A stretch of DNA of 63,668 nt, filler included, from Chrysochromulina tobinii (lineage: Eukaryota): the NCBI GenBank assembly GCA_001275005.1. It is 8 parts of 8 records of this genome, joined end to end, with 100 filler letters (N's around TTAATTAATTAA, not from the genome) between each part and the next. Parts side by side here need not be neighbours in the genome. Positions count along the whole stretch, not along the records: positions 15,790 to 21,999 come from JWZX01000370.1; 7 more parts are not named here. One strand, 5' to 3'. The position numbers and the translations under genes were made by a program. Numbering within the stretch: the first letter of the stretch is position 1; each line of letters begins with the position of its first letter. Shown here in pieces: positions 2,197-57,136 of this stretch. Below the pieces are notes generated by a model that searched no databases, was not told the origin of the DNA, and worked only from the letters and a program-made list of their open reading frames with translations.

Positions 2197-3654
2197 ATGG
2201 GCATCTCTGAGCCCTCGCTTGACGCAGTTCAACTCGACGACGACGTCACGGGCGCACTGCAAGCAGCTGGCTGTGGCGATGCGAAAGTGCAGGTCGGTGG
2301 CATGTTCGACTCACATGGCTGCAGTTCGTGGTGCAAGGAGGCTCGCAGCAAAATTGACTGCAATAGTTGCGACTGCGTGAGTGTCATGAGTGCCGCGGCC
2401 CGCCTCACCACATGCCACATGCGCGCGCGCACGCGAACAGATCGCCAATAGCACGCCAACCACACACATGCCAACTTCGTGTATCTGTGATGCCCGTGTC
2501 ATGCCCGCGTGTCGCCGTGTGCCAACTCTTGATCCTGCATTCCTGCTGCTTACTGCTGCTGGTGTGCTGGCGTTGACGTTACATGCCCGCGGATCACCTC
2601 TTTCGCGCAGGCGCTCTGCCCCTTTTGCCGAGCGAGCGTGCTCCCACCGTCGCCACGCCCGCCATCTCCCAACCCACCGCCACCACCGCATCCGCCGCCG
2701 CCGCCGCTGCCATCGCCGCCGCCGCCGCCTTGTCCAGCGAATTCCGCGATGCCAGCACGTTGTGACACGTGGTGCAAGGAGATGTACGCGCCACGCCACT
2801 GCGGTCGCGACACCTGCGACTGTGACGCATGCCACTTTTGTGTCTTGCAACTGGTGAGCCTGCTGCCGCCTCCCCTACGTCCATCGCCGCCGCCCAGGCC
2901 ATCGCCGTCGCCCGGGCCGTCACCGCCCCCGTCACAGTGCCCGCCGCCACCGCCGCCGCCGTATCCGCTGCCACTGAACATGTGGCCCCACGCCCTTCCC
3001 TCCAATAAACCAAATCCAACGCCGCCGCCGCCCAAGGCGCTGCCAACGCCGCATTCATCCACTCATCAGCCGTCGCCACTGACGTCGCCACAACGCTCCC
3101 CTTTAGCCCCTCACCGTTCACACACTTACCTGACCGGACAGCTCGCAACGACGACATCGAGCGGCCAGCTGACGAACCCGACGAGCGGCCTGACGAACCC
3201 GACGAGTGGCCTGTCGGCGTTTGTGGCATGGGATGCGGTACGCCAACAGAACCTTCAGTCGGGCCTCCTCATACCGTCAACCACGCAATTGCCCAACCAA
3301 CAACCTCACCTCCAACAACCTCTCCAGGCTCAGGAGACGTCGTCGGCGGCGTCGGCAGCGGCGGCAACCGTGCATCCGAGTGCGTTGGTTTTCTTCATTC
3401 TGACCTTCAGCGCTCTTATCATTGCTCTCCTCCTCTGCTGCGCCGCTGCATACTTCCTAATTCGGGGCGCTGCAAACTTGCTGGCCCACTTGATTGCCCA
3501 CATGATGGGTGACGGGCGTTACGGCGGACGACTAAATCCGAGCGCTCTCCTAGTACCCCGCTCGAGCCGCCATCGGCCAGGCGGCGGCAGCGGTGGCCGT
3601 TATGAAAGCCGTTATGAGAGCGTCCTCCCGACGATCCACGAGTCCTTCCGCTGA
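2197..3654 (+). CDS. Cys/Pro-rich single-pass membrane protein, 2 exons seen (intron 2377-2610)
   Basis: A phase-0 GTGAGT...GCAG intron joins CSSWCKE...CNSCDC to ALCPFC, rebuilding a module that recurs downstream (CDTWCKE...CDCDACHFC). Poly-Pro spacers and a TM helix (ALVFFILTFSALIIALLLCC). Start uncertain. Confidence 0.6.
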
Positions 3655-3751: not shown

Positions 3752-5336
3752 ATGGCGTCGTCTTTTCGGCGGCGCGAGCGCTTCTCGCTGCTGCCGCTCC
3801 GACCGATAGACGAGACGCGCGCCGAGTTTTCGACGGCGCTCTCGCTCCGTAACGCGTGCGTCGCCTTCCACGACGACAAGTACTCGTACCACCGCGCTCA
3901 CTTTGTCGTCGATGGCCCTCTCGAGAGCCCGATCGTCATGCACGGCTTCGACGAGCGCGCGAGCGGCTACCAGCGGCTGACGGTGGTGCGCCGTGCGGAG
4001 GAGTACGACCGCCTTTCGATCGGCATGTGTCGGCGCGAGGCCCTCGGCCTCGGCGTGCCCGTCTCGCACGCCTCCTCCATCTACCATCAGCAGTTCCACG
4101 CAGTGCCTTCGTGGCTTGCGCTGCGGAAGCTCGTTGCGGACGCCGGGCTGGGCGAGAATGCGCCCGCGGCAGCGTTCGTACCGCTCGCCTTTGCCAGCGC
4201 CGCGCTCGGGCACGGCAAACCCGCCCAGCCACGCCGCTGGTACGCGTGGGAGTTCTCCATCCGCCCGCTCACCACAGCGAGTGCAGACGACATCGCTGCC
4301 GCGGCCAGCCGGTTGCTACGCGCGCCATGCACGTGCTTCGAACGCTTCGAGGCGGACGGGCGCGCGTTCAATCCGGGCGCGCGCTCCTCCGCGCCGGCCA
4401 TCCGTTGGTTTCGGGACGCGGCGCTACGGCACGCGCCGCTGGCCTTGGATGCCGCCGCCGCCGCATCAGCAGCAGCAGCAGCAGCAGCATCAGTAGCAGC
4501 AGCCGGGATGGCACCAGGCGGCGGCGGCAGCGGCGGCGGCAGCAACGGCGGCGGCGCGCTCTTACTCTTTGTGAGTCGGCAGGGCGTGCGGAGAGCCCTT
4601 TCGAACGAAGCCGACGTCCTCACCCTCATCGCACGCTCGCAAGCTTTGCGTGTCGAGTCGGCTCTGGGGGGCTCCTATGCGTCCTCCTCCTCCTATGCGT
4701 CCTCCTCCTCCTCCCTAGCGCTGTCTCGAGCGCCTCGACTGATGAGAGTTGTGCTCGAGCAGCTACCCATGGTCGAGCAGATGCAACTCGTCGCGTCCGC
4801 CACGGCGCTCATTGCAGTGCATGGTCAGGTCTGTTTGGGCCTCTGATCGCCTCTGATGGCCACTGATGGCCACTGATGGCCACTGATTGCAGTACATGCA
4901 CAGGCGCTCGCCTGGGTGCATGCCTTCGGAGCCTTCCTGCATGCAAGTGCTCACTACGGCGCCCTGCCGCAGGCGCTCGCCTGGGTCGCCTTCCTGCCTC
5001 CTGCATGCAAGTGCTCACTACGGCGCCCTGCCGCAGGCGCTCGCCTGGGTCGCCTTCCTGCCTTCGGAGCGACGCGTCACCAGCGTGGTCGAGGTGTCGA
5101 TCCAAACTCGAGCCGGCCAGCCCACCTTGAATGCATGCTACGAGGGCTGGAGCGCCGCGTTGGGCGTGCGTTACTTTCGTGTCGCCGGGCGGCTCACGGG
5201 CGGTTGCACGGGCGGCGCGACGAGCCGCGACGACGAGGCGCAGCGTTCGCACAAGCTGCTCGCATGCAACGTGACGTGCAACCCTGCACAGCTCGTCGGG
5301 ACCATCCTTTCCGTCGCGCAGCTGGTGGGCGGATAA
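3752..5336 (+). CDS. Glycosyltransferase family 61 (DUF563)-like protein (intron 4829-5036)
   Basis: The spliced product reads LLFVSRQGVRRALSNEADVL...LEQLPMVEQMQLVASATALIAVHGQ|ALAWVAFLP...VVEV, matching the GT61 R-x-R-x-x-N...EQ...HG signature. Confidence 0.75.
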
Positions 5337-5695: not shown

Positions 5696-8600
5696 ATGAT
5701 GGTGGCGCGACCGCCGCGCACCATGGCAACAGCGCCGGCACAGCCAAACACGTCTTTCTCGGCTGCAGCGTCCGCGCCCGAAGACGCCCCCATGCGCTCT
5801 CGCAGGCATAGCAGCCATAGCAGGGAAAGAGTCGCCACAAGAAACAAGCCGAGGGAGTTCCGAGCTGTGCCCGTCTTGCACTACCCGCTCAAGGAGCAGC
5901 GCTCGATACATGTGCTGCCTCATCAGGAGGAGCTCAACCCATTCCAGGACTATCTTCCACTTTCGACGCACGTGGTGCAGCCGGCGACATCGACAGGCGA
6001 AGACAGTCCGCGCACAGTTCACATTGGCGCAAGCCCCCTCCGTGCAACGCTGAGGCCGGCGCCCGTGCCGCGCGAGCGTCCTCGCACAGCCCTCACCCCG
6101 TCCGAGCTCGACGCGCTGATGACGGAAATCATCCATCGGCCACCGCCTCGGCTGGAGGTCGCGCAGTCGGCTCCTCTGCCGCCGTCGGCCAACGAGTTCT
6201 ACGGCCCGGATATCGACGGCCGCGAGTTGAAGCCCTCTTGGCGGCGCATACACTCCACCCAGTGGCGAGCACGTGTCGACAAGAACTGGCAGCGCGCCGT
6301 CTCGGCCGCGGGCGCGCGAGCTGCACGGCCGTCGACCGCACCTTCTCGAGCGCGAGCGTCCACGCGCTCGTCCAGATTAGGCATGTCCGACTGGACGAAC
6401 GGCTTCGTGGACGACGAGGACGAGGACGAGTACTACGAGGACAACGAAGAGGAGGAGGACGATGGTGTGGAGTCTGCGTCGGATATGGCGAGTGGCGTCG
6501 CCTCGGCACCGGCACCGGCGACTCCGATGGCGTCGGCAAGTCCTATCCGGCAGTCCGCGCCGGTCCTATCCCTCACAACTGCCGAGGGGCAACCATATGG
6601 CAGCACGAAGAGCGCTGGGGCCCTTTCAAAGCTCCTCAGCCGCAGCGCCAGCTCCGGTGCCGGCGGCGGCGGCGGCTGCGGCGGCGGCAACGCGGCTGCC
6701 GGCGGTGCGGCCGGCGTTGCGGCCGGCTCGTGCGGCGGCAGCGTTGCGGGCGGCGTTGCGGGCGGCAGCGGCGGCGGCGGCGGTCCGTTTCGTCTGAAAG
6801 ACATGGCCAAGCTGACCGTTTTGGGGAACGGCAAGGCCAGCAAACTCGCCCGTGAACGCACTGCGAGGGCAGAGGCGTACGCCCAGAAAGCCTTGACGAA
6901 GGCGGAGATGGCTGCCACGGCGGCAGAGGCCTTTGACTCGCGCCACGTGGTGAAGCTGGCTCATACGGTGAAGCTGGAGCGAATGGCGAGCGCGAAGGCG
7001 ACTGAAGATCGCAACTTGTCGTTCAACCAAGCGTTGAAGCGGATCCGATCCAACCGGCTTGTGATCCCCGACGCTCCCCCGGAGATGGTGATTGCATCTG
7101 ATGGCCCCTGATGGCTCTTCATCGCCTGGGGAAGCCTCTGAAGGCCTCTGATGGCCTCTGATGGACTCCGATTGCCTCCCTCATCAGATCCGGCCGATGG
7201 CGGGGATCCCAATCAGGCGGCCGCCTCCCAAGCCCAGATGGAGTTTGGACCGGAGCATTTGGAAGCCACGTGCTGCGTGGTGCGACTCGCAAGAGTTCTG
7301 GGATACCGATACGGCGCGCGTCAAGCGCTTCCATCTCGACTGGGCGAGATTGCTCGCGCTCGGCGTGCCCAAAATGACGCTTCGGCTCGCCGCGCAGGCT
7401 CTCAAAGGGAGCTCCGCTACGCCCCACCCGCAGGCTGCCGATGCGGACGTCTTAGACGACGCGCCCGATGGCAAGGGAAAGCCCAGCGATGCGAAAGGGA
7501 AGGAGGCGGCGGCGGAGGCGGTGGTGGAGGCTGCTTCACAGGCGGAACTGCAGAAGATGAAGGACGTGCTGTGGACCTTTTCGAGCCTACTGCACAACGT
7601 CTTCTCGTTCTACGCGGCCACGGGCGGCGACCCTCTTTACATCCAGCTCAACGAGTGGACGCAATTCCTCATGGACTACAATCTGGTGCAGCTGATGGCC
7701 TCTGATGGCCTCTGATGGCCTCTGATGGCCTCTGATGGCCCCGCTACCAGGTGCAACGCGCCTCGAAGCATTGCAAGAAGGCGGATTGCGATCGCATCTT
7801 TATCGCCGTCGATGCGGCAGCCACACGATTCGCCGAAGCGCTCGAAAAGGATCCAAGCGCCGTCGCGAGCGCTGCGGCCGAGAACCCCATCATGACTGTG
7901 TCGCCCAAACGCGCCGGGTCGCCTTCTGGCGCGCGACCAGGATCGCCTTTCAAGAAGGAGGGGCCGTCACATGTTCACAAGAAGAAGTCGCTAGGACGGG
8001 TGGACTTCCTGGTGAGGGCGTCTGATTGCGCTCTAATTGCGTCTCTGATTGGGCCTCTGATTGTAAATCATTGCCACTGAGCTTGCGCCCTGCCTCTTCC
8101 ACAGACTGCTCTCATCCACTTGTCGCTTCATCGGTTCGTTCTCTCGAACGAGGAGGTGACCCTTTCGGGGGCGCTGTATCGGTTGGTGAGTCTGATTGGG
8201 TCTGATTACACCTCATTGCTCTCGAACGAGGAGACAACCCTCTCGGGCGCGCTGTATCGGTTGGCGACCGCCTCGGATGGTCCTGAGGCTGGCCCCGAGA
8301 TCGTCCCCGAGTTTGTACCCCGAGCGTCCCTACTTGGCAAGTATGGCCTCTGAGCGCGCCCTCCCCCCCCCTCCAATTCGGTAGGTGCATCAACTGATCT
8401 ACAAGCAGGCCGACCCCAGGCAGCTCTCCGACCCAAACTCCTTTCGGCGGCGTCACTGCTACGGCGGTGCCGCCGCGCTCGAGTACAGCCGCACCGGCGA
8501 GGACGTCGATCTCGTGCTGCGAGGTTACGAGGCCCCGTTGCGGTTGGTCTTCAACGCGCTCAACCAGGCCGACTTGGGCGTCGCCGCCACGCTACTCTCG

Positions 8601-9399
8601 CTCTTCGAGTACATGACCTTCTTGCGCACGATCGGCCTCCTCGGGCCCGACGTGACGGAGCGCGGTGCGCGCGCGCCCCCTAGATTGAACCGAGATGTAC
8701 CCCGAGCTCGACTTCGAGCTTGATCCCGAGCTTGATCCCGAGATGGCCCTCGCAGACGCGCTGCTCTGCTTCGCATGGTCGCGCATGCTCGTCATCGACG
8801 GCTGGACCGGCAGGGGGCATGCGAAGGAGAGCAACCTGCCATTCGAAGGGTTCCTAGAGGCGCTCTGCCGTGTGTCGGCGCTCATGGCGCTGCCGACGGA
8901 TGCAGAGGTGAACGAGTCTGCTTGCCTCTTTGATGGCCTCTCTGATGACATCCCTGATGGCCCTCCTCATGACCTCTCTGATGATCTCTTGCACTCGCTA
9001 CAGGTGTTCGACGCCGGCTGCGCCGACGCGTTCGAATACGTGACCAAGATGCGCGAAGCCGACGACGAGGCGTTCCACAAATGGGTCGCGCAGCGCAATG
9101 TCGACTGGGGCGCCGAGCCGCGCCAGCCACTCGCGCGCTGCGTCGCCCATCTTCTGGCCATCCTTTTTGGACGGATGAAATCCGCAATCAACCAGGGCAC
9201 GATGCCCTCCAAACTCGGCGCCAAGGCGGGCGCGGAGCCCGAGGACGACAACGACCTCTTGAGGGTGCTCGGCGGCACCGACTTCAAGAACGCCCAGCCG
9301 GTATCGATCTCCTCGGCCGAGATCTCGATCTGGTTTGCGAGGAATGAGGCGAAGCTTGGGCTGCTAGGGCTCTCAAACACGACCAGGAGTAGTATTTAA
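5696..9399 (+). CDS. Uncharacterised 7-exon protein with degenerate EF-hand-like helices
   Basis: Introns 7088-7187, 7686-7750, 8012-8104, 8186-8384, 8665-8755 and 8908-9003 (all GT-AG) link the provided ORFs in frame. Motifs: SIWKPR..CDS..FWD, IQLNEWTQFL, CFAWSRMLVID, FEGFLEALCRVS. Confidence 0.7.
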
Positions 9400-11115: not shown

Positions 11116-14100
11116 TCAGTTGCTCGCCTCTTGTGTGAAGCGCGAGCGGATGTCGCGCAACAATGCCTTCGCCTCCTCCTTCTCCTGACCCCCGAAGTCG
11201 AGGAGCCGTGAGGCGTACCTGAGGCAATTAGAGGCAATTAGAGGCAATTAGAGGCAATTAGAGGCAATTAGAGGAGCCGTGAGGCGTACCTGAGGAGGCA
11301 ATCAGGAGGCAATCAGCGCTCATCAGTACCCATCACAAGGCTCGTCGCGGCGACACGTACTATTGGGCCTCTTGGAGTTCATACTGAGGTCATCAGAGGT
11401 CATCAGAGTTCATCAGAGTTCATCAGAGTTCATCAGAGGTCATCAGAGGTCATCAGAGGTCATCAGAGGTCATCAGACGTACTGTTGGGCCTCTTGGAGG
11501 TCGCCTGTGTCTTTGCAGTGGTTGGCGAGGAAGAGGAGGGCCTCCTGCGAGCGGTCATCAGTGGTCATCAGTGGTCATCAGAGGTCATCAGTGGTCATCA
11601 GTACCTGTGTGTCGGGGCCCGAGAGCTCCTTAGAGGCAATTAGCGGAAATTAGAGGCAATCAGAGGCAATCAGAGGCAATTAGAGGCAATCAGAGGCAAT
11701 TAGAGGCAGTACCTGTGTGTCGGGGCCCGAGAGCTCCTGCAGCTCGCGCAGCCGGAGCATCGTGCGGTAGTAGTGCGCGGCCTCGCCGCGCGCCTGTGGA
11801 GTACCTGTGGGGAGAGGGACCGGAGCGCCGTGATGAGCACTTGCATAAGGGGCGCCGTGGTGAGCACTTGCATGCAGGCGTGGTCGGTTAAGGTTCGGGA
11901 TCGGGTGAGTGCCTTGGTCTTTGAAGAGTCGTGCGAGCTCCGCGAAGGCGATGCCTTCGCGATCGCCGCTGGTCTCTGCGCGTTGATAGCACTTGATGGC
12001 CTCCGTAGTGCGCCCGAGGTGCTTGTAGCAGCCAGCCATCGCACACCACATGCGCGCGTCGTACGGCCGCAGCGCGGTCGCCTTGCGGTAATAGTAGAGG
12101 GCATAGTAGTACATGGTGAGGATCTCGTAGGTCTGGCCTAGGCCGTACCTGCCATGAGTGAGGGTAATGAGGATCATTAGGGTAATGAGCTGCATTAGGA
12201 TGGCCATCGGAAACAAGCTCGAGGGTAATGAGGATCATTAGGGTAATGGGGATCATTTGGGTAATGAGCCGCCGTAGAATGGAATCGGAGCATGTAATGA
12301 GCCGCCGTAGAATGGAATCGGAGCATAAGGTAATGAGGATCATTAGGGTAATGAGCTGCATTAGGATGGCCATCGGAAACAAGCTCGAGGGCGCTCTTCG
12401 AGGCGCCGTACCAAGCGCGGTAGTCCTTCGGGTTGATGTCGACTGCATGCCGGTACGCGTCCACGGCCGCCGCCGTATTCTTAAGCTCCACGAACTCGTG
12501 ACCCATCAGCGTCCACGCGGAGAGGAAATGGCGATTGAGTTTGAGCGCGCGCCGGAAGTACGTGACCGCCTTCTCGTGCTCCGCCTTGAGCGAGTAGTAG
12601 TTGCCGATCACGCAGCAGGTCTCGGGCCGGTACCTGCAAGGAGGGCCATTATTGCAAGGAGGGCCATCAGGGCGATAGAAGAGGGCATAGGATTCATCAC
12701 GGTATTTCGGGCGATGCGTGCAATGCTGGCGATGCGCGCAATGAGTGCGATTAGGGCCATAGAGCAGGGCTCTTAGGGCAATGAGGGCCATGAGGGCCAT
12801 GAGGGCCATACAAGAGGGCTCAGTAGTCATCGCGCAGCAGGTCTCGGGTGGCGTACTTGTCAATGGAGACGCAGGCTTGGGCGAGGGCCGACAGCGATCG
12901 TTTCGACTCCTTCACGTAAAGGATGTTCGAGTAGGTGTCGACCTGGTCGAGCCGGTAGGGGTCGCGGCGGTAAGGGTACTCATAGTTAATCATAGGTACT
13001 CATAGGTACTCAAAGGTACTCATAGGTACTCATAGTTAATCATAGGTAATCATCGACCTGGTCGAGCCGGTAGGGGTCGCGCTTCAGGAGCGCCTCAAAC
13101 CCGATCTGTGCGTCGTCGAACTCGCGCAGATTGTATTTCGCGTGCGCGAGCTGGCACTGCACGTAAGGCGAGTTTGGGAAGAGAGGCAGCAGCTGCTCGT
13201 ACCTGTGCAATCAGGCGCAGTCATGTGTAATTAGGTGCAATCAGGCGCAGTCATGTGTAATTAGGTGTAATCAGGCGCAATCAGTGTAATTTGGCGCAAT
13301 CAGGCGCAATCAGGCGCAACCATCCGTGCAATCAGGCGCAGACAGGCGCAATCAGGTGCAGACAGGCGCAACCAGGCGCAATCGTCCGTACCGATGCGTG
13401 CTCAGCATGAGGGAGGCAGGGAGCGAGGCAGGGAGCGAGGCAGGGAGCTAGACGCACTGCTGGATCGCGAGCAGATTCTGCTGAGCCTCGAGCGAGGTGT
13501 GCGCACGGAAGAAGGCAACCATCCAGTGCTGGGCGACGTGCTCCGGCAGCTCGAGCGTCGAGATCGCCTCCGGCCCGCTCAGGCACGATGCGAGTTCCGT
13601 CCAGGCCGACCAGAAGCAGGGGCACCTTGCCGCCGAAAGCTTGAACTGCTCAAGGGCCTGGGGAGGCCGCTGAAGGTCGCGCATGCAGAGGCCGTAGACG
13701 TAGTGGCCGAAGCCATCGAGGCGGCCGGCCTGCGCCTCGACCCCCAGCTCGTTGCTCAGCAGCGTGAGCTGCTCGTTCACCGCACGCGGCTTGCCGGTTG
13801 GCACCACCGACGTGCCGCCTCCGCTCTCCTCGAGGACACGTTCATCCTTGCGCTTCTCTCCAGCGAGGAAGAGCGAGTACCAGCGGAGGAAGCGGCCGCG
13901 TGGCGCGCGTGCGCCTCGAAGCGTGTGCGCCGCGCGCAGGAACTCGTTCGAGTCAAAGTACGCCTTGGCGAGCAGCACGACGTCCGCCTCCTCCTCAGTC
14001 TCCTCGTCGGCCTCCTCGTCGGCCGCGGCGGACGCCGTCGCGGCTGCAGGCATCTCCTGGTCGTCGGCCGGCAGTTGCGACGCCGGGCGCAGCCCAACCA

Positions 14101-14346
14101 GCTGCTCCGCCGCCCACTTGCTGCTGCATCGTAGGCCGCGGTCGCTGCACTGCCGCACGGCGAGCCTGCGAGGCGCCCGCCAACGGTAGGCGCGCACGTG
14201 AGAGACGCAGCGTGCAAGAGGCTTTGGCAGCGCGCGTGTGCAGTGGCAGCGGCAGCGCAGCCGAGAGTAGGGCTCATCGCGGACCTGAGCTCCTGGCGTG
14301 CGCGCCCGACAGAGAGACTCAGCGCTGGGAGCGCCTCCGACGACAT
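11116..14346 (-). CDS. CDC23: Anaphase-promoting complex subunit 8 (CDC23), 9 exons
   Basis: Exons 14346-14285, 14165-13458, 13202-13058, 12942-12857, 12633-12412, 12148-11913, 11804-11713, 11544-11483, 11218-11116. Motifs: [99 protein letters not shown]. Confidence 0.95.
11221..11708 (-). repeat. Intronic decamer arrays (sense CTAATTGCCT / CTGATGACCT) in the last two CDC23 introns
   Basis: Tandem GAGGCAATTA, CATCAGAGGT and GAGGCAATCA units on the + strand. Confidence 0.95.
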
Positions 14347-15789: not shown

Positions 15790-18700
15790 CGTTTGGACAG
15801 GGCGCCTATGTCAGGTGCATGAGCGCCGCGTGCACCGCGGCCGTCTCGTCGTCGGCCTCGTCCGCGGGCTCGTCAGGCTCGTCAGGTTCGTCAGGTTCGT
15901 CAGCGGACGCTCGCCTTGTGGCCGTGTACACGCACGCTTCCTCGGCGGGCGCTCTCGACCAGCGCTCCATCTTCGCCATCCTGCGCAACGGGACGCGCCT
16001 CACCTACCTCGCAAACAAAGTGTCGACGGTTCGTGTCGGGAGGCCGATGAACGCCGAGACCGGAGCCGGTGGCGGCTACTCGTTCCGCAACCCGCCCAAG
16101 TTCCACTCATTTCTCCGTCCGTCGATCCGAGACGCGGCGTACGAAACTGAGGCGCTGCTTGAGCACCTCTTCTACCACAAGAACGTGGCGCCCTTTATGG
16201 CGCGCCGACTGATCCAGCGCATGGTAATGGCCTCGGATGGCCTCGGATGGCCTCGGATGGCCTCGGATGGCCTCGGATGGCCACTGATGGCCTCGGATGG
16301 CCTCGGATGGCCTCGGATGGCCTCGGATGGCCTCGGATGGCCTCGGATGGCCTCGGATGGCCTCGGATTGTCTCTGATTGCCAATGGCCTCTGATCCAGC
16401 GCATGGACCTAGCGCCGTGGTGAGCACATGGACCCAGCTCCAACCCGTCGCCCGCATTGAAGAAATCACCCCGGAGCCACCCCCCCCCTCCCCCAACAGG
16501 TCTCCTCCAACCCGTCGCCGCGCTACGTGGGCGTCGTCGCGCGCGCGTTTAAGCAAGGTGCGTACGGCGGCACGATCTACAGACATGCAAGTGCTCACCA
16601 CGGCGCCCGCCCTCTTCACAGGTGCATACGGTGGCACGACCTACGGCGCTCACTACGGCGACCTCGGCGCGACGTTCGCAGCAATCCTTCTCGATCGCGA
16701 GGCGCGCTCACTCACGCTCGACATGGATCCCATCCACGGACAGCTGCGCGAGCCCTTGCTCAAGGTCTGATGAGATCTGATGAGATCTGATGAGATCTGA
16801 TGAGATCTGATGAGATCTGATGAGATCGCGAGCCCTTGCTCAAGGTCTGATGAGATCTGATGAGATCTGATGAGATCTGATGAGATCTGATGAGATCTGA
16901 TGAGATCTGATGAGATCGCGAGCCCTTGCTCAAGGTCTGATGAGCTCTGATGGCCTCTGATGTTGACTGAGTGCGACTGAGTGCGACTGAGTGCGACTGA
17001 GTGCGACTGAGTGCGGCTGATTGCCCTTGCTCAAGGTCAGCCGCATCCCTATCCCGAACCCTACCCTGAGCCCTTGCCACAGGTGTACCACATCCTGCGC
17101 ACGCTCGGCTTCGGGAGCAACGGCAAGGGCTACCTGCATGACATCGTAACTGCCGGCTCGATAGGCCAGCAGCACATGAAGGCGCCCACGGTCTTCAACT
17201 TTTACGATCCGCTCTACCAGCCGCCTGGTGCCGTGGCCGAGGTACAGCTCTCGCGGCCTTGATTACCTTGATTACCTTCATCAGAGGCCGAGGTACAGCT
17301 CTCGCGGCCTTGATTACCTTGATTACCTTGATTACCTCGATTAGAGGCCGAGGTACAGCTCGTCTCGCCCGAGCTGCCGCCCGCACTCGCATGCAAGTGC
17401 CCACTACGGCGCCTCGTGCTCGCCCCTCTCCGCCCAGGCACAGCTCGTCTCGCCCGAGGCGCAGCTCGGTACGGGGCCAAACATGGTCGGCTTCCTCAAC
17501 GTGATGACGGGCGTCATCAGGGCTGGCTCGAGCGGCCAGGCCTGGGTGTGGAATGGAATGACGTCCTACCTGCCCATCCACCCAGCCAACAGCTCGGCCA
17601 CGATCGACGAGCTCGAGCTTCTTCTCACTGGCGGCCGGTTGGCCGCGCCCGCCCGCGCCCTCATCAAGGCGCGCTACGAGCAAAAGCTCGCGAGCACCGG
17701 CGGCAACGCTGCAGAAGCGGTGCGAGTCGCGCCTTGATTGCATCTGATACGCCGTTGATTGAGCCTCCCTAATTAGATGCGAGAGTCGCCTAAGAGCTGA
17801 TGACACTTGATTGCATCTGATGCGCCGTTGATTGAGCCTCCCTAATCAGGTGCGAGTCGCCCAAGAGCTCTTCCTCTTTGCGTCCGAGTTCCACGCGAGC
17901 AATTACGTTCAGGAGCGCGCCGTGCCACGCACCGCGCTGCCCGAGATCCCTTCGCAGAACCGGCCGTACAAGGCCATCGTGTACCTGTGGCTTGATGGCG
18001 GCGCCGATACGTGGAACCTGCTCGTGCCGCATAGCCAGTGCACCGGCGGCGTCGATCTGTACAACGAGTACGCGCACCTTGATGACTCCTGATTGCCTCC
18101 CTGATAACGTCGATGACCGCCGAGGGCGTGAGCGCCTCGGATCATGACGATGGCCTGATTGCCTCCCTAATTTGGCATCGATCTCGAGCATGCGACGACG
18201 TTGCACTTTGGCCACTTGAGGGCATTTGAGTGGCCTCTGATGAGCGATGACGACCTCGTCCCTAATTAGGTACGCGGCCGTGCGCGGCGCGAACGCGCTG
18301 CCAAAGTCGACCCAATTGCCCATCGATGTGCCCGCGACCGACGACCAGCCGTGCACCAAGTTTGCGATCCATCACAAGATGACCGCTCTCAAGGCGGCGT
18401 ACGACGCCGCCGACGCAGTCCTGCTTGCCAACATTGGACCCCTCATCCAGCCGTTGGACCTCCAGAGCTATAACAACGGCGCGCCACGCCCGCCGTCGCT
18501 CTTCGCTCACAATCTGCAGACGACCGTCTCGCAGAATGTGCATGCGCAAAACTCCGCCTCCGCGCGGGGTGTGCTCGGGCGCATCCAGCGCGTGCTCGAG
18601 GGCGACCAACCGTCCGGCGAGTTGCCCCACCGCGTGCGCTCGTACTCGATCGCGGGCAACGCCAAGGTGCTCGAAGGCTCGATCTCGGCGCCCGAGATCC

Positions 18701-20519
18701 TCTCATTGCTTGATGGCCTCTGATGGCCTCTGATGGTCTCCCTCATCAGGTGCTCGAAGGCTCGATCTCGGCGCCCGAGATCCTCTCCGCCGATGGACCG
18801 GTCCGTTTGAGCCGTTACGCGGCCTTACAGTCGGACGTGTCCGAGCTGGCCGGTTCGGAGGCGGCGTCCATCTACGCGGAGACTTACGGCGGCGTCCTTG
18901 AACGCTCGATCGAGTCGGCAGAGGACCTGAAGCGCGCGCTCGACAACCCGATCGCGGCGCTCTCGACGACCTTTGGATCCGATGTGGTCTCGAGGCAGCT
19001 CCAGCAGGTGGCTATGACCTCTGATGACCTCTGAGGACCTCTGAGGACCTCTGAGGACCTCTGAGGACCTCTGAGGACCTCTGAGGACCTTGCATGACCT
19101 TGCATGACCTTGCATGCAGCGCGATCTGATCGGTTACCTTGCATGCAGCGCGATCTGAGCGGTTCCGTCCCCCTCGCCTCCGCTCAGGTCGCCAAGATTA
19201 TCGGGGCGCGTTCCATATTAGGTAACGAGCGCGAGATCTTCTTCATCTCATACGGAGGGTGGGACTCGCACTTCGCGGGCGACTACGACGTCGCCAAAAA
19301 GTGGCAGGACGTGAACGCGGGCCTCACGAGCTTCGTCACCGAGATGAAGGCTCAGGGCATCTGGGACAACGTCACGTTCACGATGGCGTCCGAATTCGGT
19401 CGCACGATCGACTCCAACGGCGGAGGTACAGACCACGGCTGGGGCGGCCACTCGTTTGTGATGGGCGGCTCAATCAAGGGCGGCCACATCCTCGGCAAGT
19501 ATCCGAGCACCTACAGCCAGAGCAGCCCGATCCGTCTCCATCGCACCTTCATCCCGACCCTCAGCCACGAGGCGCTATGGCACGGCCTGGCCCAGTGGAT
19601 GGGTGTCGAGGACGCCGTGATGACCAATGTGCTCCCAAACCTCCGCAAGTTCACCAGCGAATGTTCGCCCGGCTTCCCCGGCTGCATCATCCTCACACAG
19701 GTACGTTGATTGCCCCTGATGACCTGCCTTGCATGCAAGTGCTCACCACAGCGCTTCCCCGGCTGCATCATCCTCTCACAGAACATGCTCTTCGACGGAG
19801 CTGCCGGCCCAAGCCCGCCGCCCCAACCACCGCCGTCGCCACCGCCGTCGCCTCCAAAGTCGCCGCCCCCGCCACCCGCGCCGCCCAAGCTTCCCCCCTC
19901 CCCCAGCCTGCCTGTCAGCCGGATCTACTGCCCCGCACCCGGCTTCAACCTCACCACCGACTCGGCAGGCGGCGACAGGTGCGTCGGCTGCTGCTCCTCT
20001 CTGAGGGCCTCTGAGGGCCTCTGATGACCTCTGATTGCGCCACTCATCAGGTGCGTCGGCTGCTGCTCCTCTTCGAATTGGACGTTTCCGATCGGCTGCG
20101 CCGACTCACTGTACATCATCCCTGACCTCAACGGTCTCTACAACGGCGTCAACGTGCGGATGCCGCGCGTGATCAAGTCGCCGTGCTACCACGACGTTGG
20201 CTCGTCGGTCGCCTGGGGCGCCTACGTCGAACGATGCGACATCAACTGGGTCGAGGGCAGCCCCGCACGCCACGCGACGACGGTGCTGTACAAGAGCACG
20301 GGCGAGGAGGTGACCGTGCTGCGCGTCATCAATTTCGGCACGACATACGTGCGTTTCCTCTGCAACGCCGCATCGAGCTGCGCCTCGGCGCTCTACACGA
20401 CGGGCGACACGATCAAGGTCAGGTACCCGAGTCCGATTCAGCCGCGGTCGGTCTTCCCCAACACGAACACGCCATGCGCCATCGGCCTCGGAGTACCGCC
20501 GTCAATGCCGCCCGTTTGA
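15790..20519 (+). CDS. DUF1800-DUF1501 fusion protein with Pro linker and Cys-rich C-terminal domain, 5'-partial, 10 introns
   Basis: Introns 16224-16499, 16558-16621, 16765-17082, 17242-17437, 17720-17849, 18068-18269, 18667-18749, 19008-19187, 19701-19781, 19979-20050. DUF1800-type motifs: LFYHKNVAPF.ARRLIQRMVSSNPSPRYV, GDLGATFAAILLDREAR, GQLREPLLK, APTVFNFY. DUF1501-type motifs: KAIVYLWLDGGADTWNLLVP, LFAHNLQ, GGWDSH, SEFGRTIDSNGGGTDHGWGGHSFVMGG. Confidence 0.88.
16226..16390 (+). repeat. Intronic decamer array (CCTCGGATGG)n
   Basis: About 14 tandem units directly after the GTAATG donor. Confidence 0.95.
16765..17040 (+). repeat. Intronic arrays (CTGATGAGAT)n and (CTGAGTGCGA)n with repeated copies of the exon end and donor
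   Basis: CGCGAGCCCTTGCTCAAGGTC recurs at 16747, 16827 and 16917, and partially at ~17023. Confidence 0.95.
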
Positions 20520-43313: not shown

Positions 43314-43726
43314 ATGTCGGACGACGCAGTACCCAATGGACTCGGGCCCACGCTCGCAAAGCTGAAAATGACCTACTCCGAATTCACCATTTGCGCGGGC
43401 TTCTGGTTCGCCATGCTCATCGTGTCGTCTTTCATCAGCATCAATGATATCCTGAGTACGTGTGCCTCGCCACACGAATGGAATCCCCGACCCTTGGGAA
43501 ACGTCTCACGCCTGCTCCATGTGCCCGTCTTACCGACATGGCAGGCATTCCGCCTATTTCGATTGTCATCTCGGGTGTCTCCATGGTGATGCGCTCGGGC
43601 TTGCTGACGCTGGGGTTCCAGCTTGCCCTCGTCCTGGCTGCGTTGTATGGCCTCTACAAGTACAGGGAGGCCGTGGGCAAATCGATGCTGTTCCTGGTGC
43701 GCAAGGTCACAGGGAAGCGCAGGTGA
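43314..43726 (+). CDS. Small membrane protein, 2 exons (intron 43456-43544)
   Basis: A phase-1 GTACGT...GCAG intron joins hydrophobic segments FTICAGFWFAMLIVSSF and LLTLGFQLALVLAALYGLY in frame. Confidence 0.55.
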
Positions 43727-51630: not shown

Positions 51631-54600
51631 TCAGATGGATACAGACGTCTCGAGAATGCGCGGGTTGAACGCAACAAATTCGTGACCCGTGGCGCCGCGG
51701 CGCACGTTGCGCTCGTCGATTGCTTTCGCTAGCGCCTCGAGGGCCACCTGGAAGCCTCTCACCTGATGCAGGAGGCAATCAGAGGCAATCAGTGATCATC
51801 AGTGGCAGTCGATTAGAATCAAAGCTTCATAAGGCCTATGGAAACGTCTCACCGCGTCGAGCACGCCTTGCTGCTTGCGCGCCGTCTCCCATTCGTTCAC
51901 GCTAAAGAGGTGTGAATACTCGTCCATCAGAGGCGGCTGGCGGACGCCTGTGTCGAGATGGCAATGAGGGGTGCAATCAGTGCTGCCATTGGTTGCTATC
52001 AGGCAGCCAGCAATCCATCAGTGGTCCATCAGAGGCGGCTAGACGCATGCCTGTGAGCGCGATGATGACGAGCGCCTGGGCGTGCGATTGGACATCCGGT
52101 TCGACCGTGCCGTTGGCGAGCTTTGGCGCCAAGCCGACAGGCGAGGTCAGGTATTCCACTATGCTGCCGACGAGCTCGTGGCGCCCCGTCACGCTGAAGA
52201 TGAGCTCGGTCACCTGCGGAGGCCATCACAAATTTGCTCTTGGAGTCAGAGGCAATCCAGCGCCAATCAGATGGGCTATCAAGTGACCATCAGCGGTTCG
52301 AGAGGAGCTCGGCCGTTACCAAGGTGACGAGCGAGCTGAGGCCGAGTGGAGGCAGCCGCCATGGCGTATCGAACTGCACCTCAAACGACGCCCAAAAGGC
52401 ACGCAGCTCATCGTCGGCATGCACTGCAGCATCGTCGGGGAAGAAGGGCACGAGGAACGCGCGCACGTAGGCCCCGATCGCATTCCACAGCGCGAGGCCG
52501 TCGACCGCCAACGGCCAGTGCGCGACGAAGGCATCGGGTAGGCCGGCCGCGGCGATCCGCTCGGGAAAGGGCACGTACCTGATCAGGGAGGCACTCAGAT
52601 GTCATCATAAGGTCGCCTTACGGTCGTCAGTGGCCATCAGTGGCCATCAGAGGCCATCAGAGAGGTCATCTGTGGCCATCAGTGGCCACCAGTGACCATC
52701 AGTGGCCATCAGTTCGGCTCGCGGACTGGAACGTACGTCCACTCGCGGGCCATGTCCGCAAAGTAAGTGGTCCACGACTCAGCGGTGAGAGCAAAGGTGC
52801 GATGGGCAAAGCCGCCGACAGGCATGAGTAGGTCCATGGATGCGGAATTGATCTTAGCGGCCCCATAGTAGTGGGGCTTGAGCAGACGTCGCAGCGGATG
52901 CGTCGGCGAGAGCGTCGTGCGTGCGGCACAGTCGAGGCCATTCGAGAGGATCCAATGCGTGTGCAACAGATGATCACGCAAGGTGAGCGACGCGCCGAGA
53001 GTGGCCTTGAACAGAGCCTTTGCATGCCCCCACAGCGCGTCCGACGGTGTGAAGAGCTTCGAGTGTGAAGAGCTCCACACGCCGAGAAGGGGCGGCATGC
53101 TGCCATCGGCCGGCACCGTACCGAGGTACGCGCTCGCGCCGTATCGGCACCACGTCGAGCGCACAGCGTACCTGGACATGTACTCAATGTTGCATTCAAA
53201 CGCGGACTCCGGCGGTACGTCGTGGCCCGCTGCCGCAGCCGAGCGCGCCGCCTTTAGGTACCAACTGCCAACGCCGACAATGCACAACTCGGCGATGCCC
53301 GCGTCCGTATCAAGATCATCCCACGTCTTGTACTGCTGGGGCAGGTACTTGCCAAAGACAGCCTCGATCGAAGCGTACGCCTCGGCGCGGCTTGCTGCCG
53401 ACGTCGATCTGCCATCACCCCCTTCACCCCAATACGTGAGTTTCTCAAGCGCCTCGTCCTTTTCGAAGCTCAGTGTGGTCGAAAATGCAAACAGGGCCTC
53501 TCGCGCCCATTCCTGATTAAGGAGGCAATCAGTGGTCCTCAGTGGTCCTCAGTGACGATCGGTGGTCATCATCAGTGACGTGCCCACACCTTGAGCCATG
53601 CGGGCGTTGATGAAGGAGGCAATCAGAGGTCCTCAGTGGCCATCATCAGTGACGTGCCCACACCTTGAGCCATGCGGGCGTTGATGAAGGAGGCAATCAG
53701 AGGTCCTCAGTGGCCATCATCAGTGACGTGCCCACACCTTGAGCCATGCGGGCGTTGATGAAGGAGGCAATCAGTGGTCCCCAGTGGCCATCATCAGTGA
53801 CGTGCCCACACCTTGAGCCATGCGGGCGGCTGGTCCTCATCCCGAGAGATGATCTTGATTCCTCCAAAGGGCATGTGGATCCACTCGTCCGCGTAGTCCT
53901 GCTTGGGCAGCAGCTCGGCCGTAATCTTATCCGAAGTGCCCACCGTGGTTGGATCGACCACTTTCTGCACCGCCCAGATCATGAGCTGTGTGTTCTCATT
54001 CGTAGACGTGTAGAACTTGTTCGTGCGCTCCTCAGCACTGCGCTCGCTCCGCAGCCACGCGTCGGCTCGTGCAAGCTCGCGGCCGTTGAGCGTGTCCGTC
54101 ATCTGCTGCAGCTCAAAGGGCGTTGAGTTGAAGTAGGTGACCTTGATCTCCTCGGGAGGCATCGCAGGTGTGGAGCTGCCGCCTTTGCTGCCCTTGGGAG
54201 CGGATCTGTGCGCTGACCAGAGGCGCTTCACGCCACCGTACGGCGTGGCGGCGCGCACAAAGGCGCGCAGGAAGGCAAAGATGGTCTGCAAGCCAAACTC
54301 TTTGCCGGGGCACGCGTGCGAGCCAGGGCTCGCGAGGTCCGGGGCGAGCGCAAAGTCCGCGAAGTTCACACCGAGCCGATGGTAATCGGCGACGCTTCGA
54401 AGCTTGAAGTATCTGATGAGGGTGCAATCAGCATGCACTCAGTGCTCCTCAGGCGCAATCAGCATGCACTCAGTGCTCCTCAGGCGCAATCAGCATGCAC
54501 TTAGTGCTCCTCAGGCGCAATCAGCATGCACTTAGTGCTCCTCAGGCGCAATCAGCATGGCCTCCAGCAGCAATCTCTGTGGCCACGGCAGCGCGTTCTC

Positions 54601-57136
54601 GACGCATCGGGCGCCATCAGTGGCAATCAGCGTGGCCATCAGTGGCAATCAGCGTGGCCATCAGTGGCAATCAGCGTGGCGAGTGTGTACTCGGCGTCAT
54701 CGCCCCAGACGGCGGGATCACGTGACGCCTGCATCAAGTTGAGCATGACGCAGCGCGGTGGGCGGTTGCCATCCGAGCGCTCGAAAAAGGGTAGAATGAA
54801 CACCGGCGAGAAGAGCCGAATGATTTCGAGTACGTACCTGATGAGGCACGCGATCAGAGGTCGTCACTGGCCATCGGTGGCCCTCAAAAAACCACCCGTG
54901 TCCATCTGTGGCCATGATCAAGCCATGATCAGGCCACAATAAGGTCATCATCGAGTGATACGCGGCCACCAGTGGCCGTCCGTGGAAGGCAACGTACGGT
55001 TCGATGTCCTTCGGCTGGTCGAGCGAGAAACCCTGTGGCAGGTGCCGTTCTCCCCAGGCAGAGTACGGGATGGCGAGGGCGTACCTGATTAGGGGCAATT
55101 AGAGGCAATCAGAGGTCATCAGAGGTCATCAGAGCTCATTAGGGAGGAGGGCGAGGGCGTTCCAAATTAGGGTGGAGGGCGAGGGCGTACGCGATGACGT
55201 TGGGCACCGAGATGCCGCCCGCGAAGAGGAGCGCGTCCATGAGCATGCTCGCCAGTTGTGTCACCTTGGCCGGCCCAAGCGTGCGCATCTCGTCCGGCGA
55301 GATCTTGTGCAGCGCTGCCTCATACCGTGTGAGCCACGAGGCCTTCTCTTCAAGTGTCTTGTCGACGCCGAGCGTGGCGCGCAGCACAGGCATGGCCGAG
55401 GATGGCACACTGAACGCGACGAGGATCTGTGACTGGAGCTTCGCAAACGTGAGCGCCTCTGCGTCCGTCAGCTGGATCCCGAGCATCACCTGAGGACGGA
55501 GGCGATCAGTGGCAATCAGTGGCAATCGGTGGCAATTTGTGACTGTCACCGGTCATCAGTGGCAATCAGATCCCATTCGCGAAAGTCAGCGGTCATCAGT
55601 GGCAATCAGTGGCAATCAGTTACTGTCAGCGGTCATCAGTAGCAATCAGTGACCAGTAGCTGGATGCCAAGCATCACCTCGTGCTGCAGCTGGCACACGA
55701 ACATCTTCGTGTCGGCGCCGACGCGCAGTGTGCGACGTCCGGCGAGGAAGGCGGCGGCGCGCGCCTCAAGCCATGCCAAGCCACCAAGGGCATCGAGGCA
55801 AGACGGGCCACACAGCCTGACGAAAATTGGACGTGGTCATCAGCGGTCATCAGCGGTCATCAGTGGTCATCAGTGCTCATCAGTGCTCATCAGTGCTCAT
55901 CAGTGCTCATCAGTGCTCATCAGTTGCCACACGCCTGACGAGAATTGGACGTGCCCACGCGTGCGTCTCCGTCGGCGCGGAGAGTGCGATGCCGTGCCAT
56001 GGTACCTCGGGCCACATGTGCTCATTCAACGCCATCACCCCCAGAAAGTTGTGGCGCTCGGCGGTGCCGTCGTGGTCGTTAGTGCCGAGCTTGTGTCCGA
56101 GAGCTCGCAGCTGGCTGACCACCTGATGAGGCACGCCATCGGAGGTCGTCAGGTGCAATCATGTGCAATCATGTGCACTCAGATCTGATGAGTTCGCAGT
56201 TGGCAGACCACCTCACGATGAGAGCAGTAGGTGATGCAGTCCTCGACGAAGGGACCTTGCCACTCCCACCGCTCATTGGAACGGCTGAGCACGTACCTGA
56301 TGAGCGACGCACTCAGCGCTCATCAGTGGCAATCAGTGCTGGACACTCCCACCGCTCACGGGAACGGCTGGAGACGCTGTGAATGTGAACGGCTGGAGAC
56401 GCTGTGAATGTGAACGGCTGGAGACGCACTTGGACGCCGCGTCATCACCAGGTTTGGGCTCCTGGTTCCAAGCGACCGCGAGGGCCGCGACGTTGCGGTA
56501 GTACAGCGCCCCACCGGCCTGCTCGTTGAACCAGCCACTCAGCTTGGAGGTGAGCCAGCCCAGCGGCGCCAGCAGGCTCGCACCGAGGCCACGCTCCGCT
56601 GCGGCAGCCTTCTCCTCCTCGTCGCGCAGCTCTGCCTCGAGCGCCGTGGTGAGCTCCGCGAGCAGCGCTGCCGACACGCGGGCGCCGGCCATGATAGTGA
56701 GGCTGCCTTGCGCCGGTGCGCGCATCGGGTACTCGCGGCGCTCGTCCTCGTGCTCCCGCAGCGCCGCCAACGGCACCATGCACTCACCCATGAAGTCATC
56801 ACTCGACAGGTCATCCTTGTCAAACACGCGGCAATGCAGCTCCCAGTCGGCGCCAGGAGGCGGAGCAGCGAAGCGGAAGGCGAAGTTCCAGGTCGGGGAC
56901 ACGGTGTTCCAACACGTGTCAGAGACACGCTCCGTCTCGCGCGCCTTGGCGCTCCACGCTGCGCCCACTGGCCCCAGCCGAATGATGACAAACGGGTCGG
57001 CAGGGCCCATGATGTCCACGTCCCGGCTGAGCTTCTGAGCCTTCTCGATGAGGATCGCATGGGGTGTGGCTTCTCTCACAGGGGCTTGATGCTCCGCGCC
57101 TTCCGCCGGTGCTCGTGATGAAGCGCCGCAACCCAT
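51631..57136 (-). CDS. C2 domain - CYP74-like cytochrome P450 - lipoxygenase fusion protein (13 exons, 1225 aa)
   Basis: Exons 57136-56430, 56296-56212, 56122-55935, 55816-55678, 55489-55191, 55084-54998, 54837-54691, 54412-53812, 53512-52737, 52578-52320, 52213-52051, 51947-51853, 51762-51631 sum to 3678 nt with no internal stop. N-terminus MGCGAS. C2: ADPFV, SPTWN, VFDKDDLSSDDFMG. P450: LLFAGGISV, LEIIR, RDPAVWG, SHACPGKE. LOX: WGHAK, DHLLHTHW, HPLRRLLKPH, DGLALWNAI, DDELRAFW, IFSVTGRHELVG, IDERN, C-terminal SVSI. Confidence 0.9.
53513..53811 (-). repeat. Intron built from a 74-bp tandem unit that includes the exon end and GT donor
   Basis: CCTTGAGCCATGCGGGCG recurs at 53589, 53663, 53737 and 53811. 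Confidence 0.95.

Follow-up and report, generated by a model that had tools for sequence, protein, structure and literature searches.

Spliced introns flanked by duplications of their own exons and filled with family repeats in Chrysochromulina tobinii, some of them likely recent gains

The window analyzed here, the whole stretch of 63,668 nucleotides from Chrysochromulina tobinii, consists of eight short contigs joined by spacers. It contains genes for CDC23/APC8, for a DUF1501-containing protein whose relatives carry DUF1800 and for a C2-lipoxygenase (LOX) fusion as well as an unnamed gene (Table 1). Pfam did not find a P450 family in the middle exons of the LOX gene. All 37 modelled introns possess GT/GC..AG ends; outside this set lie three additional introns of ordinary appearance, at 35586-35734, about 43456-43544 and 46346-46528.

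Table 1. Genes, introns and intron parts of the window, in order of position. The focal intron is the one at 18667..18749.
Feature	Position	Strand	Description
Intron	4829..5036	+	nested acceptor-plus-exon-start duplications, 64-nt unit
Unnamed gene	5723..9399	+	6 filler introns; one with internal 45-nt upstream-exon copy
CDC23/APC8 gene	11116..14346	-	8 introns; 571 aa open frame once removed
CDC23 last intron	11219..11482	-	distal 72 nt (11219-11290) joined to old acceptor
CDC23 intron	12634..12856	-	28-nt decayed 5' copy; present in 15/15 records and strain L011
CDC23 intron	12943..13057	-	29-nt duplication (24+5 nt) spans both junctions; position common to L007
DUF1501-containing gene	15792..20519	+	10 introns; 1041 aa; 5' end cut by contig edge
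Intron	16558..16621	+	23-nt 5' copy, 3 mismatches (20/23); second-family tail
Intron	17242..17437	+	internal 19-21-nt exon copy; later 5'-junction duplications; spliced
Older intron	17720..17849	+	11-nt copy; two rounds of copy and filler; spliced; in 15/15 records
Upstream neighbour of focal intron	18068..18269	+	shared with sister lineage; spliced
40-nt duplication (AG + 38 nt), first copy	18665..18704	+	second copy 18748-18787
Focal intron	18667..18749	+	38-nt perfect next-exon (5') copy (40 with AG) supplies GT; 10-mer filler; family acceptor; likely young gain
43-nt insert between duplicates	18705..18747	+	branch-point-like 10-mers; 3' tail shared; lacks terminal inverted repeats
Downstream neighbour of focal intron	19008..19187	+	shared with sister lineage
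Intron	19701..19781	+	carries its own donor and a second-family motif; 29-nt upstream-exon copy at 3' end (28/29) supplies acceptor; absent in sister lineage
Intron	19979..20050	+	perfect 22-nt copy at 5' end; likely shared by sister lineage, there with decaying ~41-nt copy
C2 + lipoxygenase fusion gene	51631..57136	-	12 introns; 1225 aa
LOX GC-AG intron	51948..52050	-	27-nt decayed 5' copy; in all listed records reaching it
LOX intron	53513..53811	-	3.6 tandem copies of a 74-nt unit (exon end and whole mini-intron); same site in sister lineage
LOX intron	55085..55190	-	13-nt perfect 5' copy (16/17) and second internal copy; presence/absence polymorphic
LOX intron	55490..55677	-	20-nt 5' copy, 2 mismatches (18/20); absent in P0146, present in P0141
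LOX GC-AG intron	55817..55934	-	within ~29-nt duplication spanning both junctions (18/19 plus 9)
LOX intron	56123..56211	-	22-nt 5' copy, 3 mismatches (19/22)
LOX intron	56297..56429	-	decayed ~35-nt copy; shared with diverged record P0159

An earlier note on this DNA had listed ten introns carrying copies of their own flanking exon, and each of these copies was recovered exactly where it had been placed. Within the window's 37 introns, anchored copies with a score of at least 8 are present at the 5' end of 11, at the 3' end of 4 and at either end of 15, as compared with 1/1332 cross-paired combinations per side and 0/626 when this control was restricted to exons sharing the first two letters. 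The observed copy-score sum of 374 was not reached in any of 100,000 permutations (maximum 224). All of the copies are direct; they are restricted to the roughly 30 nt next to the junction, and equally so on either side. An excess over background of direct repeats that place a copy of the neighbouring exon at the far end of the intron is the pattern associated with repair of staggered double-strand breaks. Downstream exons begin with GT in 22 of 30 cases in the CDC23, DUF1501 and C2-LOX genes, the same count as in the earlier note, and in 25 of 37 (68%) when two further genes are added, while GT makes up 4% of exon dinucleotides. The upstream exon ends in AG for only 10 of these 25 GT-starting exons and lacks it in the other 15. 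Donor starts and exon starts have GTAC/GTGC in common.

Two RNA runs splice all four introns in 17090-19005, the focal one included, exactly at the modelled GT..AG, and an intron-less joined form of these four was not found in two DNA runs. Splicing is further seen in the transcript-like sequences L008 and P0128, the latter exemplifying partly spliced transcripts among the records. No single DNA contig crosses the whole focal intron and unitigs break at its 40-nt repeat, which, in a window made of short contigs, would fit duplications that are mere short-read assembly artefacts at repeats. Misassembly, however, cannot produce mismatched copies, strain L011 carries the same copies together with its own exon substitutions, and exon, copy and filler of the focal intron are read in one frame in 13 of the 15 listed protein records from other assemblies, which come from several sources and show distinct small indels. 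We consider an artefact hardly credible.

The interiors of the introns are filled by a high-copy family of 10-base branch-point-like repeats that is confined to introns and to the sense strand. The motif of this family or that of a second one occurs in 31 of the 37 introns, and the presence of many related introns at unrelated sites is a feature shared with introners in the broad sense. Filler pairs were counted 117 times in introns in sense and never in antisense orientation, once in exons and twice, at a chance-like level, in 44 kb of other DNA of this one window, which holds only about 11 kb of clearly non-coding DNA. Matches were obtained in 382 and 388 DNA contigs, mostly on the repeat parts, and the interior of the focal intron recurs in hundreds of contigs, where it mostly precedes G or GT. 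Runs X18-X21 had almost no matching words and were left out of this comparison. In viral contigs the first motif had no match and the second a single one, at the end of a chimeric contig. The Emiliania huxleyi genome, as presented by Read and coworkers in 2013, reportedly contains strand-biased intron repeats of 10-11 bp that were not tied to exon duplication or intron gain; they resemble those described here in being 10 bp long, intron-confined and limited to one strand. One Emiliania-like intron in this analysis also starts with a 12-nt exon copy.

The inserts between the duplicates measure 39-195 nt and are mosaics: that at 18667 corresponds to a 3' part with acceptor, that at 19701 to a donor-to-branch part of two families. 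Best local matches among them reach 13-43 points, their ends differ, the two families are mixed, and the end-to-end similarity with defined element ends that marks introners was not seen. A classical MITE-type DNA-transposon introner, the short fixed target duplication of which was later blurred by repeats, would account for a dispersed high-copy family and for a splice site co-opted from the duplication, and introners with 4-bp target site duplications (TSDs) are described for a marine Chrysochromulina MAG in the available text of bioRxiv 2022.06.06.494994. Against this stand the absence of terminal inverted repeats in 11 inserts (1-6 of 10 terminal matches), of a folding signal in the same 11 (z -1.8 to +2.4) and, within the window, of copies outside genes or in antisense orientation. 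The duplications, those of the youngest cases included, fall within 5-41 nt, whereas published classes show 3-8 nt. The MITE-type reading is largely refuted, and we regard it as very improbable.

Presence and absence of introns in relatives were read from predicted protein records of other assemblies, not from DNA alignments, and a site was counted as empty in records that retain neighbouring introns. On this basis, intron 18667 is missing from seven records (P0092, P0098, P0122 with 10 contigs, P0123, P0124, P0131 and P0132), including all four of a sister lineage diverged by about 4-6%, and the more distant homologues P0086 and P0069 are also continuous across the site. Intron 19701 is missing from five records (P0121, P0126, P0127 with 6 contigs, P0130 and P0133). 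The 55085 site is empty in 9 of 15 listed records belonging to both lineages, among them P0136 (47 contigs) and P0139, which matches the window at 130 of 130 positions. Intron 55490 was not counted, its absence being based on one record. Exact look-ups returned no record in 9 of 20 cases, including 16558, 56123 and 55817. Empty alleles were encountered at 3 of about 17 sites examined, in three genes. The three introns are missing from close relatives at the protein level and are therefore likely recent gains; their copies, at duplication lengths of 40, 29 and 13 nt respectively, carry at most one mismatch each, which argues that gain is recent and probably still segregating. An assembler could possibly have collapsed the 40-nt perfect repeat in P0092, P0123 and P0124. 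Precise loss through the repeat would leave an identical empty site, and the polarity given here is based on parsimony.

The view that the copies merely remodel old introns was dropped once these empty sites appeared. A version in which duplications and deletions across junctions reshaped old introns, and precise loss via the long direct repeat produced the empty sites, appears improbable to us. It can draw on nested exon copies inside 10 of the 37 introns, on perfect copies at the older sites 19979 and 12943, on a unit that joined an existing acceptor after the split from L011 and on the shared GTAC/GTGC, which permits exact deletion. It requires, on the other hand, that each intron was ancestral and was then lost, 18667 from all four sister records, 19701 from all five and 55085 from both lineages, with distant homologues lacking these introns too, and leaves unexplained the frequency of GT exon starts and the intron positions of CDC23. 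Six of the eight positions in the latter gene are not shared with five other genomic haptophyte copies, and L002, a genomic copy from a neighbouring clade, has none of the introns. Intron presence does not differ between the window and L011 (0/8), a point against the reading as recent gain. This comparison of orthologues, proposed in the earlier note, relies on an alignment of 42 of 80 loci (one set of 12 plus 30) from which intron calls in distant, poorly aligned N-terminal regions were excluded as alignment noise; the L039 junction near residue 266 is placed about 2 codons off, L008 was treated as a transcript, and the intronless L001, L003, L004, L005 and L014, which may be transcripts, were not counted as empty genomic sites. 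Neither artefactual duplications nor positions shared with distant eukaryotes, either of which would have spoken against the earlier note, emerged from these data.

Copies also arise at existing introns and are no proof of a new site, because ten introns hold nested copies and a unit was added at the existing acceptor of 11219-11482. This unit (11219-11290) comprises a 19-nt exon copy, five 10-mers and AG and is absent from L011, which is diverged by 0.9%; its distal acceptor is used in L008. Likewise, copy divergence is only a rough clock because perfect copies also occur at the older sites 19979 and 12943: intron 12943 is fixed in 20/20 records, and its position is shared with a distant haptophyte. 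For 19979, absence in the sister lineage was considered and dropped, since residue differences beyond the site (0, 2, 4, 4 and 4 over 13 residues in five records versus about 4.5% elsewhere) look like a decaying intron copy; they may instead reflect a separate intron 14 codons downstream. The earlier note had taken the range of copy divergence as a sign of ongoing gain. Recent and probably ongoing gain is supported by the near-perfect-copy introns missing in close relatives and by the six unshared CDC23 positions; divergence is an approximate measure of it at best.

With slightly more confidence than doubt, we propose that these spliced introns, around which 5-41 bases of the exon are duplicated and whose interiors derive from a repeat-intron family dispersed through the genome, include at least three likely recent gains, and that staggered-break repair in a transcribed gene, with copying of a fragment of another intron, likely produced them. 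Two nicks 10-40 nt apart would open the exon, and filling of both overhangs would duplicate the stretch between them. The sequences show what lies between the copies in sense orientation, a 40-90-nt piece of intron made of branch-point-like 10-mers with or without an own acceptor or donor; its arrival from an existing intron would be the next event. The splice site still lacking, usually GT, comes from the exon copy, and RNA shows exact removal for four introns, so that the allele would survive. The repeat arrays then grow and shrink, duplication plus filler recurs at existing junctions and creates the nested copies seen, and the free copy decays, as protein records show. A dedicated transposase would not be required and every new intron would be a further template. 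Plain AG|GT tandem duplication, named in the earlier note among proposed routes of intron gain, does not apply, because the filler often brings its own acceptor or donor and interiors consist of family filler rather than of duplicated exon with AG|GT in the duplicate. Microhomology at the copy ends is only marginally in excess of expectation (sum 19 versus 10, p=0.003), with 6 of the 19 from one event, 2-3 of 14 events driving the signal and 6 of 14 showing none. There is little sign of templating within a gene: 7/37 introns have their best match in their own gene, versus 8.6 expected, and adjacent introns are slightly more alike (p 0.01-0.05).

Untargeted DNA repair would not be expected to restrict the inserts to genes and to the sense strand. 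The main rival to staggered-break repair is insertion by a retroelement-like or reverse-splicing route. Excised intron RNA, or a non-autonomous retroelement resembling an intron 3' end, would be attached to the target through its AG end, and target-primed reverse transcription would copy it; the copy would be 5'-truncated, and the stagger of the nicks would leave a long duplication of variable length, the GT of which turns into the donor. The commonest class, in which a fixed family 3' end abuts the exon and a variable 5' end is preceded by a downstream-exon copy, conforms to this scheme, as do the predominance of such copies (11 versus 4 of 37) and the distribution restricted to genes and the sense strand. 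Non-LTR elements typically give variable long target duplications according to the available text of PMC9977147, and PMC4540971 proposes that the sense-only introners of Micromonas insert by reverse splicing into R-loop DNA. The mirror cases 19701, 12943 and 55817, however, keep the donor side, copy the upstream exon and do not exhibit the pattern of one fixed and one truncated end. Exon 9-mers inside introns are equally frequent from either side (0.165 versus 0.178), inserts mix two families and no reverse transcriptase is linked. We rate insertion primed by RNA as rather unlikely. That the duplications vary in length and occur on either side of the junction favours staggered-break repair.

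Staggered-break repair would have a precedent in Daphnia pulex, where it yields polymorphic new introns with 4-12-bp repeats (Li et al., 2014, PMC4202315). In both systems a direct repeat of the adjacent exon lies at the opposite intron end and internal staggered events with further repeats follow later. As far as the available text goes, the Daphnia repeats are shorter than the 5-41 nt found here and no repeat family is reported, whereas in C. tobinii the inserted sequence is part of a high-copy family with branch-point-like repeats and a splice site of its own. Introners of Symbiodinium, Polarella (classes 4-6, 8 and 10) and a marine Chrysochromulina sp. combine one carried with one co-opted splice site (bioRxiv 2020.10.14.339549, 2022.06.06.494994) and share with our introns dispersed related copies, a GT from the duplicated target and an aquatic algal host. 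They are portrayed there with a characteristic TSD of 3-8 nt and defined ends, while here length and ends vary, either splice site can be carried and interiors are 10-mer arrays. Micromonas introner elements and fungal introner-like elements (ILEs) are likewise restricted to genes and the coding strand, polymorphic for presence and devoid of coding capacity, but form near-identical full-length copies, and the accessible parts of these reports mention no long exon duplications (PMC4540971, PMC3443670). In AG|GT tandem genomic duplication the duplicate also gives splice sites and leaves the protein unchanged (PMC3443670, available text), whereas in C. tobinii it is short and encloses a foreign intron interior. 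Our literature search did not find this architecture described for haptophytes; supplementary introner tables of bioRxiv 2022.06.06.494994 may list the families seen here.

Junction repeats do not date introns, and short-read assembly and gene prediction will mishandle genes of this kind. The origin of new spliceosomal introns without a transposon is an open question for which clear natural cases are few. Quite tentatively, the window may offer a glimpse of a transposase-free, self-propagating intron factory, haptophyte-wide and segregating in lakes, in which intron RNA, as lariat or pre-mRNA, would serve to mend breaks in transcribed genes, so that existing repeat introns give rise to further introns bordered by exon duplications of long and variable length. 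The organism is culturable, has RNA data and is present in many assemblies, and a catalogue of polymorphic insertions could separate DNA-templated, RNA-templated and reverse-splicing routes.

Coordinate-based models of four genes gave unbroken frames (see table) and, with one intron of a fifth gene, a set of 37 introns, named here by their start coordinate. The ten exon copies cited in the earlier note were all located in the sequence as described there. At a score of at least 8, 11 of the 37 introns have a copy of the next exon at their start and four a copy of the previous exon at their end, as compared with 1 in 1332 per side in a cross-pair control. Up to 20 nt from either junction, 16-18% of exon 9-mers are found again in their own intron; past 30 nt the figure is less than 1.5%, and inverted matches are almost absent. 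The claim that 22 of 30 downstream exons in the CDC23, DUF1501 and C2-LOX genes start with GT was reproduced, the figure for the complete set being 25 of 37. Ten of the 37 begin with GTAC, mostly following phase-2 introns, ahead of a tyrosine codon and without an upstream AG; GTACG is the most frequent donor (8 of 37 introns).

The intron interiors are made up of 10-base units centred on a branch-point-like YTRAT core, with common tails at the end, while a second filler family is characterized by a conserved motif of 20-25 nt; one or the other is present in 31 of the 37 introns. Judged by their sequence, the 10-base units may act as branch points. Tandem pairs of filler units occur 117 times in the sense strand of introns, never in the antisense, once in exons and twice in the remaining 44 kb. 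The interior of the focal intron matched hundreds of DNA contigs, and since the loose ends begin right after the acceptor G or GT, it is a member of a family that is spread genome-wide and in most cases has GT after it. Derivation from a MITE introner is highly improbable; neither terminal inverted repeats nor a folding signal were found in the 11 inserts examined between duplicates, these inserts vary in length and ends, and the window data do not show defined element ends. The introns are clumped, with 36 filler-type or modelled introns in four genes; many neighbouring genes seem intronless or carry a single ordinary intron.

Coordinates of features in the window and at CDC23 and viral-collection loci elsewhere (L-numbers)
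Feature	Position	Strand	Observation
Unnamed gene	5723-9399	+	6 introns
CDC23	11116-14346	-	8 introns
72-nt unit	11219-11290	-	Possible two-step (recursive) removal with the older intron
DUF1501 gene	15792-20519	+	10 introns
Focal intron	18667-18749	+	Opens with perfect 38-nt copy of next exon
Single ordinary introns	35586-35734; ~43456-43544; 46346-46528		
C2-LOX gene	51631-57136	-	12 introns
C2-LOX protein middle	54202-54900	-	ExxR and H-x-C-x-G motifs by eye, as in cytochrome P450/allene oxide synthase; possible P450-like-LOX fusion; no Pfam match with single exons
Short frame at contig start	58674-59279	+	Chromodomain (Pfam Chromo, E 1.6e-9)
Open frame, 337 aa	62653-63666	-	CCHC-like knuckle by eye, which we take as possibly a retroelement gag fragment; no credible Pfam match
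L007 (CDC23)	2862-2974		3' copy of 7 nt
L039 (Emiliania-like CDC23)	882-959; 215-287		GC-AG intron opening with perfect 12-nt next-exon copy, plus 5 nt on 3' side; ~28-nt 3' tail common to two introns
L081 (phage contig end)	4200-4554		Eukaryote-like stretch of ~300 bases that carries an intron of the second family (duplication, 10-mers and an acceptor followed by GT); junction likely a chimeric assembly

The window comprises eight contigs joined by spacers, has a GC content of ~62% and is placed among haptophytes by its CDC23 homologues. The top named match is Emiliania huxleyi (49% in one exon), environmental proteins reach 64-68%, and in the CDC23 tree the window is nested in a clade of marine sequences separate from Emiliania. 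Of 80 CDC23 loci, 42 were aligned, and the window's intron positions were checked against five haptophyte copies of genomic type, which contain 0 (L002, which also has neighbouring frames), 1 (L006), 2 (L007), 5 (L039) and 5 (L064) introns. Six of the eight window positions are unshared with these copies; position 294 is common to L007 and position 396 to L064. All eight introns are also found in the conspecific strain L011 (16 differences per 1713 exon bases), six of them with a different length through repeat indels. Substitutions in the L011 exons have no counterpart in the intron copies at 12943 and 11545, so these copies have not been homogenised.

Introns 17242, 17720, 18068 and 18667, the four covered by read-level splice support, were skipped exactly in two RNA runs, which bears out their junctions, and their joined form was not seen in two DNA runs. 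As RNA and DNA probably stem from the same culture, this tests splicing and assembly rather than polymorphism; an assembly artefact is scarcely credible. In transcript-like records, seven CDC23 introns (L008) and seven DUF1501-gene introns including 19008, 19701 and 19979 (P0128) are spliced out.

Prokaryote-style gene calls on metagenome contigs run into introns, so that members of protein clusters reveal alleles; because intron-bearing sequences served as cluster seeds and no more than 15 members per cluster are listed, presence is favoured. For the focal intron, 15 of the 17 cluster members are listed; 13 of them read into the copy, which shows several small indels, and two cross the site. 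Five further records, among 15 listed of 172 in the next-exon cluster, start in 18068, cross the site and end in 19008. Four of these seven empty records are from a sister lineage (differing at 7-9 of 132 residues), one of them (P0122) representing 10 contigs, and no listed sister-lineage record carries the intron. The other three, near-identical to the window, may represent either collapsed repeats or ancestral alleles. Distant homologues likewise run across the site, which by parsimony makes absence ancestral. For intron 19701, five sister records (10 contigs) read straight across the site and two records contain the intron. At LOX intron 55085, nine of the 15 records listed from a cluster of 48 run across the site, and all nine continue into the following intron. 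They include one that is identical to the window (130/130) and a diverged one that stands for 47 contigs; the perfect repeat of this intron, only 13 nt, is too short for assembly collapse. All listed records reaching the site contain 17720 (15), 13203 (15), 53513 and 54413 (13), 12943 (20), 12634 (15), 52214 (15), 51948, 51763 and 56297 (2). Intron gains have very probably occurred, and remodelling of old introns with loss in relatives is an unlikely explanation.

The earlier note's interpretation as recent gain is supported in part; interior copies, a 72-base unit and the shared intron 19979 do not fit simple gain. Interior exon copies (score of at least 13) reside in ten of the 37 introns (4829, 8186, 11219, 11545, 16224, 16765, 17242, 17720, 53513, 56297) and can only form at pre-existing introns. 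Within intron 11219-11482, 72 bases past the old acceptor (a 19-nt exon copy, five 10-mers and AG) are present in the window but not in L011, the copy ending with six bases that match those ahead of the old AG. The added unit has GT..AG ends and forms a complete intron of its own, directly adjoining the older one without an intervening exon, so the mutation is seen at work, though next to an old site. The sister lineage appears to have intron 19979 too, its copy there being longer and decaying.

The duplications vary between 5 and 41 nt and lie to either side of the junction, the inserts are mosaics of pieces from other introns, and the event recurs at junctions that are already old. These features make it somewhat more probable than not that staggered breaks were repaired by gap filling with a templated insert; a staggered break would be filled in while sequence templated on other introns is inserted. 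Tests for local templating and microhomology gave weak results. An RNA-primed insertion route, for which the strict confinement of filler to genes and sense strand and the excess of cases with a fixed 3' end and a downstream-exon copy speak, is a less likely but serious alternative. Break repair as a route of intron gain has a precedent in Daphnia, with reported repeats of 4-12 bp (PMC4202315) versus 5-41 nt here, while introners are reported to co-opt splice sites with fixed duplications of 3-8 nt (bioRxiv 2020.10.14.339549, bioRxiv 2022.06.06.494994), as opposed to the variable ones in the window. The combination seen here was not found in the part of the literature searched, which included PMC3443670, PMC4540971, PMC9977147, PMC11282704, PMC10288648, PMC12480563 and PMC13518057; the main text of PMC12130899 does not mention haptophytes. 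Judging by the Emiliania-like CDC23 locus L039, the process forming such copies may be more widespread among haptophytes.
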